DNA of 30,253 bases, taken from the NCBI GenBank assembly GCA_965369935.1, contig CBDUSX010000001.1, forward strand, positions 1 to 30,253. The letters run 5' to 3'. Source of the stretch: an uncultured bacterium (GTDB taxonomy: Bacteria > SAR324 > JACQKK01). The translations under genes were made by a program, and so were the position numbers. Under the pieces are notes generated by a model that saw only the letters and a list, made by a program, of their open reading frames with translations, made no database searches and was not told where the DNA came from. This document shows positions 15,386 through 23,643 of the stretch, piece after piece. Position 1 is the stretch's first letter. The number at the start of each line of letters is the position of its first letter.

Positions 15386-16402
15386 CTAGAAGAACATCAG
15401 CAGGGAGAGGGTCAGGGTGTCTCCGAAGGGATGGTTGAAGCCCCGATTCACCTTCTCCACTTCCAGCCGCACCTGATAGGGAAATCCCACCGGCCCCTCC
15501 TCCAGATCCGCCAGATTGCCCAGCCCGAGCAGCAGGCGCAAAGTCTGCGCCTTCTCTCCGTCGAACAGGTTCTCCCCGCCGAGGCGGTTGTCCCGGAGAT
15601 CTATCCTTTCCAGTTCAAAGCCGTAGGAGAAGATGCCGATATCCTGAGTCCAGTTGAATTTGAGCAAAATCTGGTTGCCGGGGATCAGCCGTTGTTTCTG
15701 TCCGGAGGTGGTGTCCACCGATCGTTGAATGCCCCGCCGCACCTTAAACCTCACGTCGAAACGGGCCCGCGGCAGCGCAGGATAGCGGGTATAGTGGATA
15801 AAAAAGAACATCCAGCGCACCGGTGTGCTCAGGTCGAAGGTGCTGGAATCGTGGTAGGGCGATTGCTGGCCCGCGCCGGGCAAGGTCAGCCCGTAGGCCC
15901 AAATGAACGCGTTCGAGTCGGAAAAGACGGGGCGATGCAAGCTGGTGAATTCGATCTCCCCGATTCCGCTGATGGAGTCGGATTGCAGGCGGGCCACCGT
16001 GGCCACCGCCTCCGCCGACCCGGAGGTGGCGAGGGTGGAGTTTTGCTTCATGTCCAGCAAGGGGAGGTTGAGGGAGATGTTCCAGGTGTCCGACAGGCCC
16101 AGGGTGAAGCGGAAGTCGTAGCGGGTGATTTCACGCTCGATGTCCCCGCTGATCTGGCCGCGGATGGAGGCCTCTGGAATGGCGTAGTCCTTAAACGTCT
16201 GCGACTTGCTGAGGCGGCTGATGGCCCTGTCCTGGGTTACCGTGCGCAGGGTAAAGCCGGTGAACAGCGTGCCCTCCGGCACGAACTCGTCGTCCACGGC
16301 GGCGGGCGCCAGGGCGGGCAGCAGCAGCACCAGCACCATGGCCAGCAGGGCTGTCTTTCGCGCGCCCGCGTACAGGCGGGGGCCGGGGTTGGCTGGCCTC
16401 AT
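15386..16402 (-). CDS. Putative outer-membrane beta-barrel protein (338 aa; transporter/MetA-deg-like)
   Basis: Signal peptide LLAMVLVLLLPALAPA; alternating amphipathic strands (RYDFRFTLGL, WNISLNLP, FSYGFELE, YQVRLEVE); SGIGEIEF resembles the GxGD motif; terminal Phe. ATGA overlap with the maf stop. Confidence 0.7.
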   Translation of the reverse strand: MRPANPGPRLYAGARKTALLAMVLVLLLPALAPAAVDDEFVPEGTLFTGFTLRTVTQDRAISRLSKSQTFKDYAIPEASIRGQISGDIEREITRYDFRFTLGLSDTWNISLNLPLLDMKQNSTLATSGSAEAVATVARLQSDSISGIGEIEFTSLHRPVFSDSNAFIWAYGLTLPGAGQQSPYHDSSTFDLSTPVRWMFFFIHYTRYPALPRARFDVRFKVRRGIQRSVDTTSGQKQRLIPGNQILLKFNWTQDIGIFSYGFELERIDLRDNRLGGENLFDGEKAQTLRLLLGLGNLADLEEGPVGFPYQVRLEVEKVNRGFNHPFGDTLTLSLLMFF

Positions 16403-16983
16403 AGGGTGATCCATCCCCTGTCCAGCAGGTCCCACACGATCGCGTCCATGGGAAATCCCACCACAGTGCTCCAGGAACCCTCGATGCGCTCCACCATTGC
16501 GCCGCCCATGCCCTGGATGGCATAAGCCCCCGCCTTGTCCCGTGTTTCCTGCAGGCGGCTGTACCACTCGATCCACGCTTGGGGCAGGGTGCGGAAGGTG
16601 ACCAGGGTTTCCGGGGCTTGGGTATAATTCGCGCCGGTGGCTCCGTCCAGCAGGGTGTAGGCGGAGAGCACCCGGTGGGTCCTGCCCGAAAGACGGCCGA
16701 TCATGTCCGCGGCCTCCTCCCCGTCCCTGGGTTTGCCCATGATGTCCCCGTCCAGCACCACCACCGTGTCGCCGGCGAGGATGATGTGATCGGCGTGGCT
16801 GCTCCTGGCTTCCCCGGCCTTCAGGGCGGCCAGGCGCTTCACGTAGTCCGGCGGGTCTTCTCCGGCCAGGCGCTGCTCGTCCACCTCCACCGGATGGACG
16901 GAGAACTCCAAGCCGTATTGCGCCAGCAGGTCCCGCCTCCGGGGGGAGGCGGAGGCCAGGCAGAAGGGGCGGGTCTGTTTCAT
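16399..16983 (-). CDS. maf: Maf-family nucleoside triphosphate pyrophosphatase, YhdE-type (194 aa)
   Basis: LASASPRR, GDTVV, GKP, DKAGAYAIQG, VVGFP. The R/T/Q signature points to the YhdE (dTTP/UTP) subtype. Confidence 0.95.
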   Translation of the reverse strand: MKQTRPFCLASASPRRRDLLAQYGLEFSVHPVEVDEQRLAGEDPPDYVKRLAALKAGEARSSHADHIILAGDTVVVLDGDIMGKPRDGEEAADMIGRLSGRTHRVLSAYTLLDGATGANYTQAPETLVTFRTLPQAWIEWYSRLQETRDKAGAYAIQGMGGAMVERIEGSWSTVVGFPMDAIVWDLLDRGWITL

Positions 16984-17096
16984 GGCGCAACAGTCATGGC
17001 CTGCGGGGGAGCAAGGCATGCCCCGGGAGGATTCCTGCTTCAACCTCCCTGTTTTGGCAGCCTGCGGTTTGTGAGATCAAAGGCGGTTTCAGGATG

Positions 17097-19067
17097 TCAG
17101 TTGTCCGGCGAGGGGTTCTCCGCTTCCGGTTGGGCCGTGCCGGGCGGCGGCCCGAAAGCCTCCTCCAGCTTTTGCTGAAACTTCCGCCGGGACTCTTCGA
17201 TCACCGAGAACTGTGGCATCCGGGGTGCGAAGGCTTCGATGTGCTTATCATAGAATCGCAGAATTTGCTTGGCGATGGGCGCGGCCGCGGCCGATCCGGC
17301 GCCGCCGTGCTCCACCAGCACCACCACGGACACCTCGGGGTTATAAGCCGGCGCGTAGCCGACGAACAGGGAATGGGGCAGCAGACTCTCATCCTCTTTT
17401 TCCCCTTCGACAATGGCCAGCCGCGCCGCCCGGCCCACCACCTGGGAGGTGCCTGTCTTGCCCGCGGTGACGAAGTTGAGCGAGCGCACCTTTCGCGCGG
17501 TGCCGCGGCCTTCCACCGCTTCGATCATCCCTGCGCGGATCAGATCGAAGTTTTCGGCGGAAATGGGCAACAGCCGGGTCTGGCGGGGCAGATCGGCGGC
17601 GGATATGACATCGAAGCCGTCCGGACTGACGATCTGCCGCAGCAGGGTGGGCTTGACCCATACCCCGCGGTTGGCGATCGTGTTCACGTAATTGATGAGC
17701 TGGATCGGCGTCACGCTGACGTAGCCCTGCCCGATGGACACGGCCACGGTCTCCCCTATGTACCATTTTTCCTTGAGATTGCGGAGCTTCCATTCCTTGG
17801 TGGGCAACAGCCCTGCCTTTTCGCTTTCCGTTTCCAAGTTGGTGAGCTGGCCGAAGCCGAGCATGGTGGCGTACTCGCTGATGCGGTCCACCCCCAGTTC
17901 CTGACCCAGCTTGTAGAAGTACACGTTGCAGGAGGCCGCCAGCGCCGCTTTCAGATTCACGTAGCCGTGCCCCGAGCGCTTCCAGCAATAGCGGATATCC
18001 CGGTTGATGCGGAAATAGCCGGGGCAGCGGTAGGTGCTCTCCGGCCCGATCACCTGCTGGTCCAGCCCCGCCGCGGCCAGCACCATCTTGAAGGTGGAGC
18101 CTGGAGGATACTGGCCCTGGGTGGCCTTGTTGATCAGGGGTTTCTTCTCCCCCTGGGTGAGCTTGATCCAGTGCCGGCCCTTGATGCCGCCCACGAACAG
18201 GTTCGGATCGAAGTCGGGAAAGCTGTTCATGCTCAACACCTCTCCCGTGCGCGGCTTCATCACGATCACCACGCCGCTGCGCCCGGCCATCAGTGTGCGC
18301 ACCTGGCGCTGCAGGCGCAGGTCGATGGTCAGGGTGACCTCGTGGCCGGGAATGGGCCGCACGGGCAGGCCCAGCACGCGCAGTTCCCGTCCCACGTTGT
18401 CCACTTCCACCTGCCGTCCGCCGTCCAGTCCGATCAGCAGGTCGTTGAGCATGGATTCAATGCCCGACTGGCCCACGATGCGCCCGGAGTACAACTTCCT
18501 GATGGGCAGATTCTTCAGTTGATCCTCGTTGATGACGCCCACATAGCCCAGCACATGGGAGGACAGAAAGGCGGTGGGGTAGAGCCGTTTGGGCTCGACC
18601 GCCACGGATATGCCCGGCAGATCGCCCTGGTAGGTGTCCACCAGGTCCGCCGTCTTGCGGCCGATGTCCTTCAACAGCAGCACCGGCTTGAACTTGCGCT
18701 GGCGGCGCTTGGCGCTGGCCGCATCCACCAGGTTTTGGTAGGGCGCCGCGGTCACCTGGGCCAGTTTTCTCAGGGAAGCGGCGAGGTCCGGCGTGTCCTC
18801 GGGAATGAGCTGGACGTTGAAGGCCGGCCGGTTGAAGGCCAGGATGACCCCCTGGCGGTCGTAAACGATCCCCCGCGGCGCCTCCTGGGGAATGACCCGG
18901 ATGCGGTTGCCTCTGGACAACTCGGCATAGTAAGTGCCGTTCAGCAGCTGCAAATACCACAGGCGGCCCAGCAGCACGAGAAACAGGACGGCCAGCGTTG
19001 CGGCAATCACGGCCAGCCTGAACCGCAGCAGCTGGATCTCCTCGGTGGTCATCAACGTGTATCTCAT
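17097..19067 (-). CDS. mrdA: Penicillin-binding protein 2 (class B transpeptidase)
   Basis: N-terminal TM; RLWYLQ; APRGIVYDR; SxxK (PGSTFK), SCN and KTG motifs; directly downstream of mreD. Confidence 0.97.
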   Translation of the reverse strand: MRYTLMTTEEIQLLRFRLAVIAATLAVLFLVLLGRLWYLQLLNGTYYAELSRGNRIRVIPQEAPRGIVYDRQGVILAFNRPAFNVQLIPEDTPDLAASLRKLAQVTAAPYQNLVDAASAKRRQRKFKPVLLLKDIGRKTADLVDTYQGDLPGISVAVEPKRLYPTAFLSSHVLGYVGVINEDQLKNLPIRKLYSGRIVGQSGIESMLNDLLIGLDGGRQVEVDNVGRELRVLGLPVRPIPGHEVTLTIDLRLQRQVRTLMAGRSGVVIVMKPRTGEVLSMNSFPDFDPNLFVGGIKGRHWIKLTQGEKKPLINKATQGQYPPGSTFKMVLAAAGLDQQVIGPESTYRCPGYFRINRDIRYCWKRSGHGYVNLKAALAASCNVYFYKLGQELGVDRISEYATMLGFGQLTNLETESEKAGLLPTKEWKLRNLKEKWYIGETVAVSIGQGYVSVTPIQLINYVNTIANRGVWVKPTLLRQIVSPDGFDVISAADLPRQTRLLPISAENFDLIRAGMIEAVEGRGTARKVRSLNFVTAGKTGTSQVVGRAARLAIVEGEKEDESLLPHSLFVGYAPAYNPEVSVVVLVEHGGAGSAAAAPIAKQILRFYDKHIEAFAPRMPQFSVIEESRRKFQQKLEEAFGPPPGTAQPEAENPSPDN

Positions 19068-19573
19068 GGCCTCGTACGGATTGAGTCAGCCAGTTTAAGC
19101 CTGCGCTCCAGCCGCGCCAGGCCCCACACCAGGAAGGGGGCCAGGACGGCGTGGTAAATGGAGGCGGGCAGCACCTTGCGGAACAGCCACTGCCACCAGG
19201 GGGTGGCGCCGTCCAGGATTTCGAAGATCGAGATGGAGATCACCCCTTCGGCCAGGGTCAGTCCCGCCACGGCGGCCATGGTGAACCATACGGTATTCTC
19301 GTAAATGGAGCTGCCCACGTAAATCGAAAGAATGGAAATCAGGAAAAAACTGATTCCGTATACGCCCAGCATACCGTGGGAAAACACGTCCAGCGCAATT
19401 CCGGCCAGGCTCCCGTATAAGAACAGCCAGGGCGCCATCCAGCGCAGACCCAGCACCAGCACCGTCAGCAGCAACAGGTTGGGCTTTATCCCGAATACCG
19501 ACAGGTAGGGGAAGACCGTCAGTTGCAGCCACAGCGCGCCCAGCCCGATTCCCAGGTATATCCACGGCTTCAT
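19064..19573 (-). CDS. mreD: Rod shape-determining protein MreD
   Basis: Highly hydrophobic 169 aa; KPNLLLL and GIALDVFS...G motifs; ATGA overlaps with both mreC and mrdA. Confidence 0.9.
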   Translation of the reverse strand: MKPWIYLGIGLGALWLQLTVFPYLSVFGIKPNLLLLTVLVLGLRWMAPWLFLYGSLAGIALDVFSHGMLGVYGISFFLISILSIYVGSSIYENTVWFTMAAVAGLTLAEGVISISIFEILDGATPWWQWLFRKVLPASIYHAVLAPFLVWGLARLERRLKLADSIRTRP

Positions 19574-20469
19574 GGCTGGCTGAAAAACGGCTGCCCCGCC
19601 TCGTTGCGGTCAACCATGATCACATAGACCCCCTCGATCTTGTTGAAATCCACCACGGGCTGGATGATGGCGTTCTGAAACATCTCGTGCTGCTCCCGCG
19701 ACACCTCGGTGACGACGCCCACCAGAAACCCCCTGGGAAAAATGCCGGCCAGCCCGCTGGTGATCACCCGGTCTCCCTTCTCCACATCGGCCAGCATGCG
19801 GATGCGCTCCATGCGCAGCCCACTGCCCAGGCCCTTCACGATCCCCCGGTCCGGCGCCTTGAGGCGCAGGGAGCCTCCGCCGCCTTCCAGGATCAGGCGT
19901 TCCCGCGAGCGCTGGATGACGACCGGGAAGCGGTGCCTGCGGTCCACGATCAGCTGCACCACGGATTGCAGGGCGGTGACCGAGCGTATTCTGCCCACCA
20001 CCCCCTCGCGCAGCACCACCGGGAAATTGCGGCGAATGCCGGCCAGATGGCCCTTGTTGATCAGCAGGGTGTGGTGAAAATTGTCCAGGGATTCCCCAAT
20101 CACCTCGGAGTATATCCTCCGCTCCGGGTCGGCCTCCTTGAACTTCAGCTGCTCGCGCAGCATGTCGAATTGGATAGAGCCGTTGACGTAATGGTTCAAC
20201 TCCTCCCGCAGCGCCTGGTTTTCCAGTTCGAGGCGCTTGTTGTCTTCACCCAGCCGCACCAGGAAGACGTAGCGGTCGAACACGCCGGAAATCCAGTTGG
20301 CCGTGTTGGCAAAGCCTGCCTGGAAGGGGTAGGTCACCGCATTGACGGTCTCGTCCACCACGCCCGATTCGCGGGAGCCGGCCTGATGCACCGAGAGCAC
20401 CACGATCAGCAGGATCAACAGCCCGGCCGCCGCGAACAGAATCCGGTTGCGTTTGATGAGTTCGATCAT
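19570..20469 (-). CDS. mreC: Rod shape-determining protein MreC
   Basis: N-terminal TM, coiled coil (ENQALREEL), LLINKG, GVVGRI, GDRVITSGLAGIFPRG, PVVDFNKIE. Confidence 0.96.
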   Translation of the reverse strand: MIELIKRNRILFAAAGLLILLIVVLSVHQAGSRESGVVDETVNAVTYPFQAGFANTANWISGVFDRYVFLVRLGEDNKRLELENQALREELNHYVNGSIQFDMLREQLKFKEADPERRIYSEVIGESLDNFHHTLLINKGHLAGIRRNFPVVLREGVVGRIRSVTALQSVVQLIVDRRHRFPVVIQRSRERLILEGGGGSLRLKAPDRGIVKGLGSGLRMERIRMLADVEKGDRVITSGLAGIFPRGFLVGVVTEVSREQHEMFQNAIIQPVVDFNKIEGVYVIMVDRNEAGQPFFSQP

Positions 20470-20550: not shown

Positions 20551-21579
20551 TCAGACGGCCTGCTTCCCGTCTCCGTTGCCGTCCAGCACCCGCGGGGCGC
20601 CCAGCACGGTGGCGTTGACGGGGTCGTCCGTCAGCTTGAACTCCAGCCCGGTGCGCTCGCTCAGGTATGCGGGCAGTCCCTGCAAAAGCGCTCCGCCCCC
20701 CAGCAGGGTGATTCCGTTGCGGGCGATGTCGCCGGCCAGTTCGGGCGGAACCCCTTCGAACCCGCGTTGAAATCCCAGCAGCAGCCGTTCGCAGGCGTCC
20801 ATCAGAACGTCCCTGATTTCGTTGTCCTCCAGGATCAGGTGCTTGAGGTCGTCCGTGCGCTTGTCCCGCGCCTCCACCTGGATGGAGGCGGGCTTTTCCA
20901 TGGGATATACCGAGCCCACGGCGAGCTTGACCTGCTGCGCGGTCTCCGGGGAGATCACCCGCCCATAGCGCCGCGTCACATAGCGGCCGATGGCTTCGTC
21001 CAACTCCCTGCCGCCGAAATCCTCCTGCCACCAGGCGGCCAGTTCCCCCATGGTGAATAGGGCGAAGGAGGTCTTGCCGCCGCCGATATCCATCAACATC
21101 TGGCCCTGGGGCTCGCTCAGCCGCAAACCGCAGCCCAGTGCCGCGGCCAGGGGTGCCTGCAGCAGGTACTTGCGGCCGAACCCCATGTCCACCAGCAGCG
21201 CCCGCAGCCGCGCGGACTCTTCCTGTGGGAGTCCGGGCGGCACCAGCAAGGCCCCGATATTGCGGAGCGAAAGAAAGGCCCAACGGCTTTCGGTGCGCCG
21301 GATCAACTCCCGCAGCAGCTTTTCCATCGCGAATGCATCGGCCACGCGCCCGTGGGCGACGGGAGCCACCAATCGATCCGGGGGAGCTTTTTCGGGCCTC
21401 TTTTTCTTGGGTCGTCCGGCCTCCCTGCCTGCCTGCCGCGGAGGATCCGGCTGGCCGTTCGGGATGCCGATGAGGGAAGGCACTCTAAGAAGATGCGGTT
21501 TCCGGTTGGAAACGACGACGGTGTGAGAGGAGCCGATATCGAATATCAGTTCCCGCCGAAATGTCAGCCCGAACTTCAA
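20551..21579 (-). CDS. mreB: Divergent MreB-like actin-fold protein (342 aa)
   Basis: TTG start with GAGG RBS; motifs DIGSSHT, PLAAALG, DIGGG, GGRELDEAI, ELAGDIARNGITLLGGGALL, DDP; first gene of mreC-mreD-mrdA. Several catalytic positions are altered. Confidence 0.85.
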   Translation of the reverse strand: MKFGLTFRRELIFDIGSSHTVVVSNRKPHLLRVPSLIGIPNGQPDPPRQAGREAGRPKKKRPEKAPPDRLVAPVAHGRVADAFAMEKLLRELIRRTESRWAFLSLRNIGALLVPPGLPQEESARLRALLVDMGFGRKYLLQAPLAAALGCGLRLSEPQGQMLMDIGGGKTSFALFTMGELAAWWQEDFGGRELDEAIGRYVTRRYGRVISPETAQQVKLAVGSVYPMEKPASIQVEARDKRTDDLKHLILEDNEIRDVLMDACERLLLGFQRGFEGVPPELAGDIARNGITLLGGGALLQGLPAYLSERTGLEFKLTDDPVNATVLGAPRVLDGNGDGKQAV

Positions 21580-21707
21580 AAGCCTCGATCCCGTGTTAAA
21601 TCAGAGGACATCCCAGCCCCATACCTACCACCCCCCCTTGTTGAAGACAAGGGAGGCGCCCCGCCGCCGCAGCCGCCGGAGGGCGGGAGGAATCCCCCGG
21701 CGCAAGC

Positions 21708-21756: not shown

Positions 21757-21829
21757 GGCGAGATAGCTCAGTTGGTAGAGCAGGGGACTGAAAATCCCCG
21801 TGTCCACAGTTCGATTCTGTGTCTCGCCA
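21757..21829 (+). tRNA. tRNA-Phe (GAA), CCA end not encoded
   Basis: Acceptor GGCGAGA/TCTCGCC; D-arm GCTC-AGTTGGTA-GAGC; anticodon arm GGGGA-CTGAAAA-TCCCC; T-arm CACAG-TTCGATT-CTGTG; discriminator A21829 followed by CTT. Confidence 0.98.
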
Positions 21830-21893
21830 CTTTCTCCATCCCCGTCCCACCGGCGGCGGCGTGCCGCCCGCATCCTGATATTCCGGCAGCACG

Positions 21894-22779: not shown

Positions 22780-23643
22780 ATGAGCGAGCACGAGTCGAGC
22801 CAAATGCAGGCAATGCTGAGCATCATTGGACCGAAGCTCAAGGCGGCGCGCAAGGAGAAAGACCTTACCATCAAGGAGATTGCCGCCTCCACGCGGATCA
22901 ATGTGGTGTTTCTGGAGCGGATAGAGTCCGCGCAGGCGCAGAATCTGCCGGGGCTGACCTTCGTGCGCGGATTCATCCGCAACTACCTGCAAGTGCTGGG
23001 GCTGCACGACGAGGAAATCGAGGAGCAGTTGCGGAGCATCGCCACCATGGACGAGTACCTCTCCCAGACCGCGCTGGGGCCGGAAATAAACGAAATGCAC
23101 GGGGAGGAGTTGCCTGCCTCCATACCCGCCCAGAAGCTGGTGATTATGGGCCTGGTAGCGGTGTTGGTCGTTGCGGCCGGCTATATGGGAATCCGCCTGT
23201 TCTCGCGCTCCGACGGAGATGCCCCCGCCCCGCCGGCGGTGATGGAAAAGGCAGCTGACGAGTCCTCCGTGGGGTCCGAGCAACCGCAGGCGCCGGGCGG
23301 CCAGTCCGAAAAGCCGTCCGCCGAGCCCCCCGCCCGCAGTGACGCCCGCTCCTCCCGGGGCGCAATCCTGGAAGCTCCGCAAAACCTGCGCCTCACGGTG
23401 CGGGGCCTGGAACCCACCTGGATCAGGGTTTCTCTGGATCGCGCGCCGCCGGTGGAGGTGCGCCTGGAGCCAGCGGAAACCATGAACTGGGAAGCCAACG
23501 AGGAAATCCGCCTCGTCATCGGAAAATCCCACGGCGTGGCCGTCTATCTGAACGGCGAGGACATTCTGATGCCCGAGGAACGCAACCAGCTCATCCCCAA
23601 CATCGTGCTGAACAAGCTGACTCTGCTCAGGCTGGAAAACTGA
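22780..23643 (+). CDS. rodZ: RodZ-like protein (HTH, single TM, linker, C-terminal DUF4115-like domain)
   Basis: HTH IGPKLKAARKEK...FVRGFIRNYLQVLGL; TM LVIMGLVAVLVVAAGYMGI; Pro/Ala/Ser linker; TWIRVSLD...IGKSHGVAVYLNG. Confidence 0.88.
   Translation: MSEHESSQMQAMLSIIGPKLKAARKEKDLTIKEIAASTRINVVFLERIESAQAQNLPGLTFVRGFIRNYLQVLGLHDEEIEEQLRSIATMDEYLSQTALGPEINEMHGEELPASIPAQKLVIMGLVAVLVVAAGYMGIRLFSRSDGDAPAPPAVMEKAADESSVGSEQPQAPGGQSEKPSAEPPARSDARSSRGAILEAPQNLRLTVRGLEPTWIRVSLDRAPPVEVRLEPAETMNWEANEEIRLVIGKSHGVAVYLNGEDILMPEERNQLIPNIVLNKLTLLRLEN

Follow-up and report, generated by a model that had tools for sequence, protein, structure and literature searches.

The contribution of ATP hydrolysis and of the antiparallel double filament to the function of MreB is debated, and the evidence comes mostly from engineered mutants. 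In Caulobacter crescentus MreB (CcMreB), E140 and T167 place the attacking water (PMC4051119), and the E...T-X-[D/E] triad has been shown experimentally to control the release of inorganic phosphate (Pi) (PMC9597168). Caulobacter strains with MreB E140A/G or T167A are viable; their cell shape is altered, and they resist A22. The E134A substitution leaves ScMreB5 ATPase-deficient but able to form stable filaments (PMC9195046). At the inter-protofilament contact, CcMreB V118E forms single protofilaments, and the Escherichia coli protein with the V121E substitution (EcMreB V121E) is non-functional and gives no support to rod shape (PMC4051119). A natural paralog without the triad is known from Spiroplasma. 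This protein, SpeMreB3 (PDB 7E1C/7E1G), polymerises with lower polymerisation activity and slow Pi release (PMC9597168), and its lineage derives from the Firmicute MreBH. Here we analysed a 30,253-nucleotide stretch of DNA from an uncultured SAR324 bacterium, hereafter referred to as the window, which encodes a divergent MreB paralog on its reverse strand (Table 1). What is new in this case is a loss of the triad that is linked to the operon, fixed in a family, and found alongside a canonical MreB.

The initial annotation of this gene had described an MreB whose catalytic Glu is replaced by Ala142 and in which several other motifs are altered. We located the quoted motifs by string search in the translation, and all of them are present: DIGSSHT (residues 14–20), a Pro/Lys-rich stretch (44–67), RWAFL (99–103), LQAPLAAA (140–147), DIGGGKTS (164–171), AQQVK (214–218), and GGGALL (294–299). 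Residue equivalences were taken from a gap-free HMMER alignment block with Caulobacter MreB (PDB 4cze), using the construct offset from PMC4051119. Column occupancies were counted in 35 canonical MreBs of the order and in the 18 operon copies of the window's family. A further alignment, designated A2, holds 21 homologs of the divergent protein with 37–70% identity. Ala142 indeed lies at the position of CcMreB E140, and the Thr and the acidic residue of the triad are replaced as well. Position 169 is Thr in 35/35 canonical MreBs, whereas it is Lys in 10 of the 18 operon copies (K, Q, R, S, C, or T occur among them) and in nearly all of A2. Position 171 is Glu in every canonical sequence (35/35) and acidic in none of the 18 family operon copies. 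The hydrolysis motif E...T-X-[D/E] reads A142...K169-T-S171 in the divergent protein, with all three residues replaced, and we infer from this motif that the protein is deficient in ATP hydrolysis.

The phosphate-1 DxG, phosphate-2 DxGGG, and adenosine GGG (G294–296) elements are all kept in the divergent protein and are invariant or nearly so in A2, where D14, G16, D164, G166–168, and G294 do not vary at all across the 21 homologs. The retention of the adenosine motif GGGALL, which had been pointed out at the outset, is thus borne out. Because the Asp/Gly loops of phosphate-1 and phosphate-2 and the adenosine motif are retained, together with D194 and K218 in the window's sub-clade, the protein is predicted to bind ATP/Mg. 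Some deeper members of the clade (L018, L021, L022, and L023) are also devoid of a phosphate-loop Asp or of the GGG glycines. Nucleotide binding has probably been lost on the branches without the phosphate-loop Asp, and the clade would then span a range from proteins that bind without hydrolysis to proteins that bind nothing.

The residues at the filament interfaces show a mixed picture. The position equivalent to CcMreB V118 is Val in 35/35 canonical MreBs, whereas 14 of the 18 operon copies carry a charged residue there (E in 8, R in 3, K in 2, and D in 1, with other residues in 4). The equivalent of CcD189 is Asp in 34/35 canonical sequences and Arg in the divergent protein. At the intra-protofilament position, CcS283 corresponds to G283, likewise a small residue, inside the highly conserved segment PPELAGDIA; this conservation leaves longitudinal contacts possible. 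The Pro/Lys-rich stretch of subdomain IB is present as annotated, but it is not a net insertion: it replaces the canonical hairpin–helix segment at approximately equal length (alignment A1) and is modelled as disordered. Its sequence and length vary across the family, and conservation counts within it were set aside, since this part of the alignment cannot be relied on. Both the V118E-type substitution and the IB tip that the model shows as disordered would argue against a classical antiparallel homofilament. The membrane loop was also said to be kept. This holds for the window protein, whose F102–L103 align with CcF102–V103, and for its near relatives, but conservation of the loop does not extend to the clade's 18 operon copies as a whole. 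A short N-terminal helix (residues 3–6) is modelled at low confidence.

A search of the window's assembly for a second, canonical mreB found two such genes, on contigs 57 and 107 (L001:1480-2523:- and L002:1444-2508:+). Both carry ITEPMAAA and DIGGGTTE, and neither adjoins mreC. We extended the comparison to 41 genomes of the order, with 57 loci in all. Within the window's family, the catalytic Glu is missing from the mreC-linked copy in 18/18 genomes, and the stand-alone copies of these genomes all have E, T, and E at the three triad positions. The divergent copy lies next to mreC in all of these genomes, whereas the neighbours of the solo canonical copy are unrelated. Because canonical MreB occurs in all 18 family genomes, the divergent protein accompanies canonical MreB, and the suggestion that it might replace the canonical protein is not upheld. 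Three genomes had seemed to be without a canonical copy, until N-terminal fragments of one were found at contig ends. Contamination of the bins as the source of the canonical copies is excluded, since the closed single-contig genomes G010 and G018 (1.6–1.7 Mb, reduced) hold both MreB types on one contig.

The two canonical copies of the window's assembly share 93% protein identity with a synonymous divergence (dS) of ~0.6 and lie in different gene contexts. In the other genome of the genus there is a single canonical solo mreB, which is nearer to the contig-57 copy. The second canonical solo mreB in the window's bin could be a true second paralog or could come from a second organism in the bin. 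In another genome, the canonical mreB L037 (G013 contig 341, 9189-10235) has a tandem repeat of the DIGGGTTEVAVISLAGIVYS... segment, and its match falls into two parts; the assembly could be at fault here, or the gene could contain a genuine internal duplication.

In the sister family, E, T, and E are present in 20/20 copies, four of which head mreC-mreD-pbp2. Since the operon copy of the sister family is canonical, the loss of the Glu is a derived trait that the operon paralog acquired at the level of the family. In a survey of 88 genomes of the phylum, strong matches to the divergent profile were confined to the window's family. In the maximum-likelihood tree, the 18 family operon copies form one clade with an SH-like approximate likelihood ratio test (SH-aLRT) support of 100 and a stem of 2.0 changes per site. 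Tip lengths in this clade are ~1, compared with 0.15 as the median over all tips and ~0.01–0.2 for most canonical copies. The family's stand-alone copies cluster with the 'solo-type' clade of the sister family, which implies that the duplication is older than the divergence of the two families. In the free tree, the divergent clade branches as the sister group of the order's remaining copies. We treated this placement as probable long-branch attraction, since the constrained topology had the higher likelihood: joining the clade with the operon-type clade of the sister family changed the log-likelihood by +10.7, and the approximately unbiased (AU) test does not reject this constraint (p-AU 0.75). 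In-situ degeneration of the ancestral operon mreB is thus favoured by synteny and the constrained tree, although it is supported rather than proven. Members of the divergent clade share on average 29% pairwise identity in subdomain IA, 38% in IIB, and 47% in IIA, whereas canonical copies of the same genomes share 69–79%. The charged V118-equivalent and subdomain IA, the least conserved part of the divergent clade, would complicate the co-polymerisation with canonical MreB that had been proposed.

A sequencing or assembly error is excluded as the origin of these changes. An independent European Nucleotide Archive (ENA) assembly contig (L058), whose protein has 97.7% amino acid identity, shows the same LQAPLAAA, DIGGGKTS, and TTG start, and 17 other genomes show the same states. 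A word-indexed protein search returned the ~21 homologs of A2, which have xAPxAAA and GGGK in common and one of which is labelled 'SAR324 cluster bacterium' by NCBI. When a profile of these homologs was run against all proteins of a 1.8-billion representative library, ~28 clusters of the divergent type were obtained. The reading frames are open in 18/18 family genomes, covering >10 genera. Ratios of nonsynonymous to synonymous substitution rates (dN/dS) were calculated with NG86; YN00 was unstable or failing for most pairs owing to saturation and was unused. The divergent copy gave 0.21, 0.18, 0.25, and 0.20 for four genome pairs (the pair of the window and L058 contains very few substitutions). 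The values were 0.12–0.19 for the neighbouring mreC, mreD, and pbp2 (mreC 0.14–0.19, pbp2 0.12) and 0.05–0.08 for the canonical solo MreB of the same genomes. The divergent gene is under purifying selection approximately equal to that on its operon partners and several-fold weaker than that on canonical MreB. The argument of the initial annotation against a sequencing error or pseudogene, which invoked an intact frame and coordinated motif changes, is thereby strengthened: the Glu is absent from all the family's operon copies, the replacement of the hydrolysis motif with the phosphate loops kept is fixed across the family, and selection is purifying.

Between the window and the near-identical L058, the MreB-like gene has eight amino acid changes and a dS of 0.05, whereas mreC is 100% identical (dS 0). 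The changes checked by eye sit in subdomain IIB (window 20780-20980, residues ~200–265). Local recombination may account for this pattern, or the region may form a variable patch on the protein surface.

By sequence and fold, the divergent protein is a member of the MreB/Mbl superfamily. It matches Pfam PF06723 (MreB_Mbl) with 189.8 bits (cut-off 27) over profile positions 3–321 of 327, whereas the canonical solo copies of the same genome score 472–480 bits. Its AlphaFold2 (AF2) model has a predicted local distance difference test score (pLDDT) of 87.4 and a predicted template modelling score (pTM) of 0.83, and it is confident except for residues 43–64. In a Foldseek search with this model, ranks 1–25 were all MreB or Mbl (E down to 1e-31, TM 0.77–0.84), and the best matches were Caulobacter and Thermotoga MreB (TM 0.82–0.84). 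Identity to canonical MreB is 29–33%. The protein falls below the NCBIfam MreB cut-offs (187.9 vs 293 for NF010539 and 176.5 vs 365.75 for TIGR00904). In its curated subfamily scores, its hydrolysis triad, and its V118 interface, it departs from canonical rod-shape MreB. Annotation pipelines nevertheless name the gene 'rod shape-determining protein MreB', a label that obscures the location of the true canonical MreB at another site.

The protein has in common with canonical MreB of C. crescentus, Thermotoga maritima, and E. coli the four-subdomain actin fold, the phosphate-1 and phosphate-2 loops, the adenosine GGG, the small residue at the S283 position, and the first place in the mreB-mreC-mreD-pbp2 cluster. 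It differs from them in the replacement of E140/T167/E169 by A/K/S, of V118 by E, and of D189 by R, in a disordered and basic IB helix region, and in evolution that is several times faster. The closest precedent is SpeMreB3, likewise a natural paralog without E...T-X-[D/E] that coexists with hydrolysis-competent paralogs. Its motif is D...K-X-S, in which K174-X-S176 matches K169-T-S171, whereas the first position is D147 there and Ala here. SpeMreB3 is only a low-ranking match to the divergent protein (E 3e-24 by sequence, Foldseek rank 23–25), and the divergent clade falls among the MreBs of the same order rather than near the Firmicute outgroups. Because the two lineages belong to separate parts of the MreB tree, the shared K-X-S appears to be a convergence. 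The host of SpeMreB3 is a wall-less Mollicute without an elongasome, whereas the divergent copy is elongasome-linked. SpeMreB3 filaments are double-stranded, whereas the divergent protein carries a V118E-type substitution, as read from its sequence. The catalytic mutants (ScMreB5 E134A and Caulobacter E140A/G and T167A) have the same kind of change at the catalytic Glu or Thr, with the outcome of filaments that are more stable and less bundled, or of the viability with altered shape and A22 resistance mentioned above. However, they are single substitutions in canonical proteins, whereas the present change is natural, fixed in a family, and accompanied by many other changes and a second, canonical MreB. 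The premise that MreB without the Glu still polymerises agrees with ScMreB5 E134A (PMC9195046) and SpeMreB3 (PMC9597168). A description of the divergent paralog was not found in the literature on SAR324 MreB or on MreB pseudoenzymes.

We favour the interpretation that the divergent gene encodes a functional, catalytically degenerate MreB paralog that would serve as a non-hydrolysing, ATP-bound scaffold or adaptor beside canonical MreB, with a probability of roughly 0.6. The course of its origin is well supported. The ancestor of the order already carried a pair of MreB genes, with one at the head of mreC-mreD-pbp2 and the other on its own. In the window's family, the operon copy then lost E...T-X-[D/E], gained a charged residue at the lateral interface of the antiparallel pair, and lost order in part of IB. 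Its evolution became several times faster, yet it remained under purifying selection and linked to the elongasome genes, while the stand-alone copy retained every canonical residue. By analogy with ScMreB5 E134A, SpeMreB3, and the Caulobacter E140/T167 alleles, the divergent protein may bind ATP/Mg and hydrolyse ATP very slowly or not at all, which would hold it permanently in an ATP-like state. Its gene linkage suggests a static, membrane-proximal scaffold or adaptor for MreC, MreD, and PBP2, and possibly RodZ. Such a protein may work beside or on the dynamic canonical filament without forming a classical antiparallel double filament itself.

Several points weigh against this interpretation. 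The residue preceding the lost Glu stays acidic or an amide (Q141; E or D in most relatives) and could support residual hydrolysis, though canonical MreBs often carry it too. The loss of hydrolysis is deduced from three residues, and the scaffold or adaptor role only from gene linkage. The free tree sets the clade outside the order, so that orthology depends on synteny and a non-significant AU test. Selection on the divergent copy is several-fold more relaxed than on canonical MreB, the within-clade identity of 29–47% falls far below the canonical values, and part of the signal could reflect a loosened constraint on a protein that matters little. The data also come from uncultured organisms, with fragmented bins among the genomes in several cases.

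Should hydrolysis be sustained at a useful rate by other residues, such as residue 141 or a Lys169 that acts on the gamma-phosphate, the protein would be a fast-evolving but active MreB. The conserved phosphate-loop Asp/Gly residues and adenosine motif agree with such an activity. So do the prevalence of Lys at position 169, which suggests a selected role, and the low activity retained by SpeMreB3. However, canonical MreBs with EEP or DEP carry the position-141 residue as well, so that it offers no new compensation, and removal of the Glu alone makes ScMreB5 ATPase-deficient. The T160K and D162S substitutions in SpeMreB5 lower Pi release at least 5.6-fold (PMC9597168), and the absence of the Asp residues from several clade members implies that catalysis is not what selection maintains; we regard a persisting ATPase as quite unlikely. 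It is very improbable that the operon copy became redundant after the duplication and is a relic drifting towards loss without a function of its own. Its evolution several times faster than that of solo MreB, a dN/dS 3–4 times that of the solo copy, and progressive motif decay in some lineages (L018 and L021–L023) would fit such a drift, but the frames are intact throughout the family and the divergent type extends over ~28 representative clusters. Moreover, its dN/dS of 0.18–0.25 is about that of mreC, mreD, and pbp2, many clade-specific positions are invariant, and the copy is kept even in the reduced genomes G010 and G018.

The strict linkage to mreCD-pbp2, the unrelated surroundings of the solo copy, the age of the solo paralog clade, which is older than the family, and the highly conserved region of PPELAGDIA around G283 could also mean that the divergent protein is the elongasome's own MreB. 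It would then form a non-dynamic, single-stranded filament with MreCD and PBP2, and the canonical solo MreB would have another task. We consider this unlikely, because the solo copy keeps all features required for rod-shape function in model organisms (PMC4051119) and is linked to no other process, whereas the polymerisation of the divergent copy is putative and part of its IB tip is disordered in the AF2 model. More tentatively, the scaffold or adaptor interpretation may be extended to a two-component MreB system, which we put forward as a speculative possibility. A subunit permanently in the ATP state and incapable of lateral pairing (V118E-like, with a degenerate IB tip) might act as a cap, a nucleator, or an elongasome-docking subunit on the ends or sides of canonical filaments. 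The solo MreB would provide the dynamics and the dead paralog the coupling to the synthase. Eukaryotic actin-related proteins divide labour with actin in a parallel manner.

The family represents a natural experiment in a walled, diderm-type lineage, in which an operon MreB has long been kept without the triad and with a V118E-type interface, beside a canonical paralog. If the divergent protein is a dead, elongasome-docking scaffold, the organising role of MreB would be separable from its dynamic role, and the protein would be a bacterial counterpart of the actin-related proteins. Insensitivity of the divergent protein to A22-type inhibitors is a further prediction, since substitutions at Caulobacter E140/T167 confer A22 resistance.

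The gene occupies the canonical operon position, as annotated: MreC, MreD, and PBP2 follow on the same strand, in the order divergent mreB, mreC, mreD, PBP2, and maf. The coordinates of these genes and of the residues discussed above are listed in Table 1.

Table 1. Features of the divergent MreB paralog and its surroundings, in window coordinates (A2, 21 homologs; operon copies, 18 of the window's family; canonical, 35 MreBs of the order)
Feature	Position	Strand	Remarks
Divergent MreB paralog	20551..21579	-	342 aa, TTG start, MreB fold
Asp14	21538..21540	-	Phosphate-1 Asp (= CcD16), retained; invariant in A2; D in 16/18 operon copies
Pro/Lys-rich low-complexity stretch	21379..21450	-	Residues 44-67, subdomain IB; AF2 pLDDT <50 for residues 43-64
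Glu120	21220..21222	-	Inter-protofilament position, = CcMreB V118 (EcMreB V121)
Ala142	21154..21156	-	= CcMreB E140; canonical E 35/35; operon copies A 13, I 2, S 2, L 1
Asp164	21088..21090	-	Phosphate-2 Asp (= CcD162), retained; invariant in A2; D in 15/18 operon copies
Lys169-Thr170-Ser171	21067..21075	-	Replaces T-X-[D/E], CcMreB T167...E169 (K169 = T167, S171 = E169)
mreC	19570..20469	-	PF04085, 143.8 bits; adjoins divergent copy in 18/18 family genomes sampled
mreD	19064..19573	-	PF04093, 22.3 bits, slightly below cut-off; position and homologs conserved
PBP2 (mrdA-type transpeptidase)	17097..19067	-	PF03717 (PBP_dimer) and PF00905 (Transpeptidase)
maf	16399..17043	-	PF02545, 177.6 bits
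Upstream leader of the MreB-like gene	21580..21660	-	Conserved with L059:370-450 (other genome of the genus)
tRNA-Phe	21757-21830	+	Upstream of the MreB-like gene
Purine/MTA phosphorylase-family gene			Upstream of the MreB-like gene
RodZ-like protein	22780..23643	+	Pfam HTH_25 and RodZ_C; divergent, 1.2 kb upstream of the MreB-like gene

The window and L059 have in common the TTG start and a leader of the form cttgtcttcaa...taggtatg...ctgatttaaca. A start codon of this kind suggests that translation is low. A reading of this stretch as a promoter (TTGTCT-N17-TAGGTAT) was given up after a scan for the sigma-70 consensus raised no flag, and it is kept as a conserved leader only. The RodZ-like neighbour with HTH_25 and RodZ_C is also found in L058. 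In model organisms, RodZ contacts MreB at subdomain IIA, which is where conservation is strongest in the divergent protein. After maf, the window encodes a protein of ~338 residues (~15386-16402, reverse strand) with a signal-peptide-like N-terminus and a C-terminal Phe, for which a Pfam search gave no match. The gene is also present in L058 and L059, and its product, which closes the mre cluster, is a candidate outer-membrane beta-barrel.

MreB-like proteins without the catalytic Glu also occur in unrelated metagenomic lineages (P0058, P0059, P0072, P0085, P0104, P0114, P0124, P0183, and P0185). Many of them have an E-to-Q change, as in actin Q137, and some have E-to-A. In P0058 (1010 aa) and P0059 (497 aa), the MreB-like domain is located at the C-terminal end of a longer protein. 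Homologs of MreB without this Glu may be more widespread than has been assumed.

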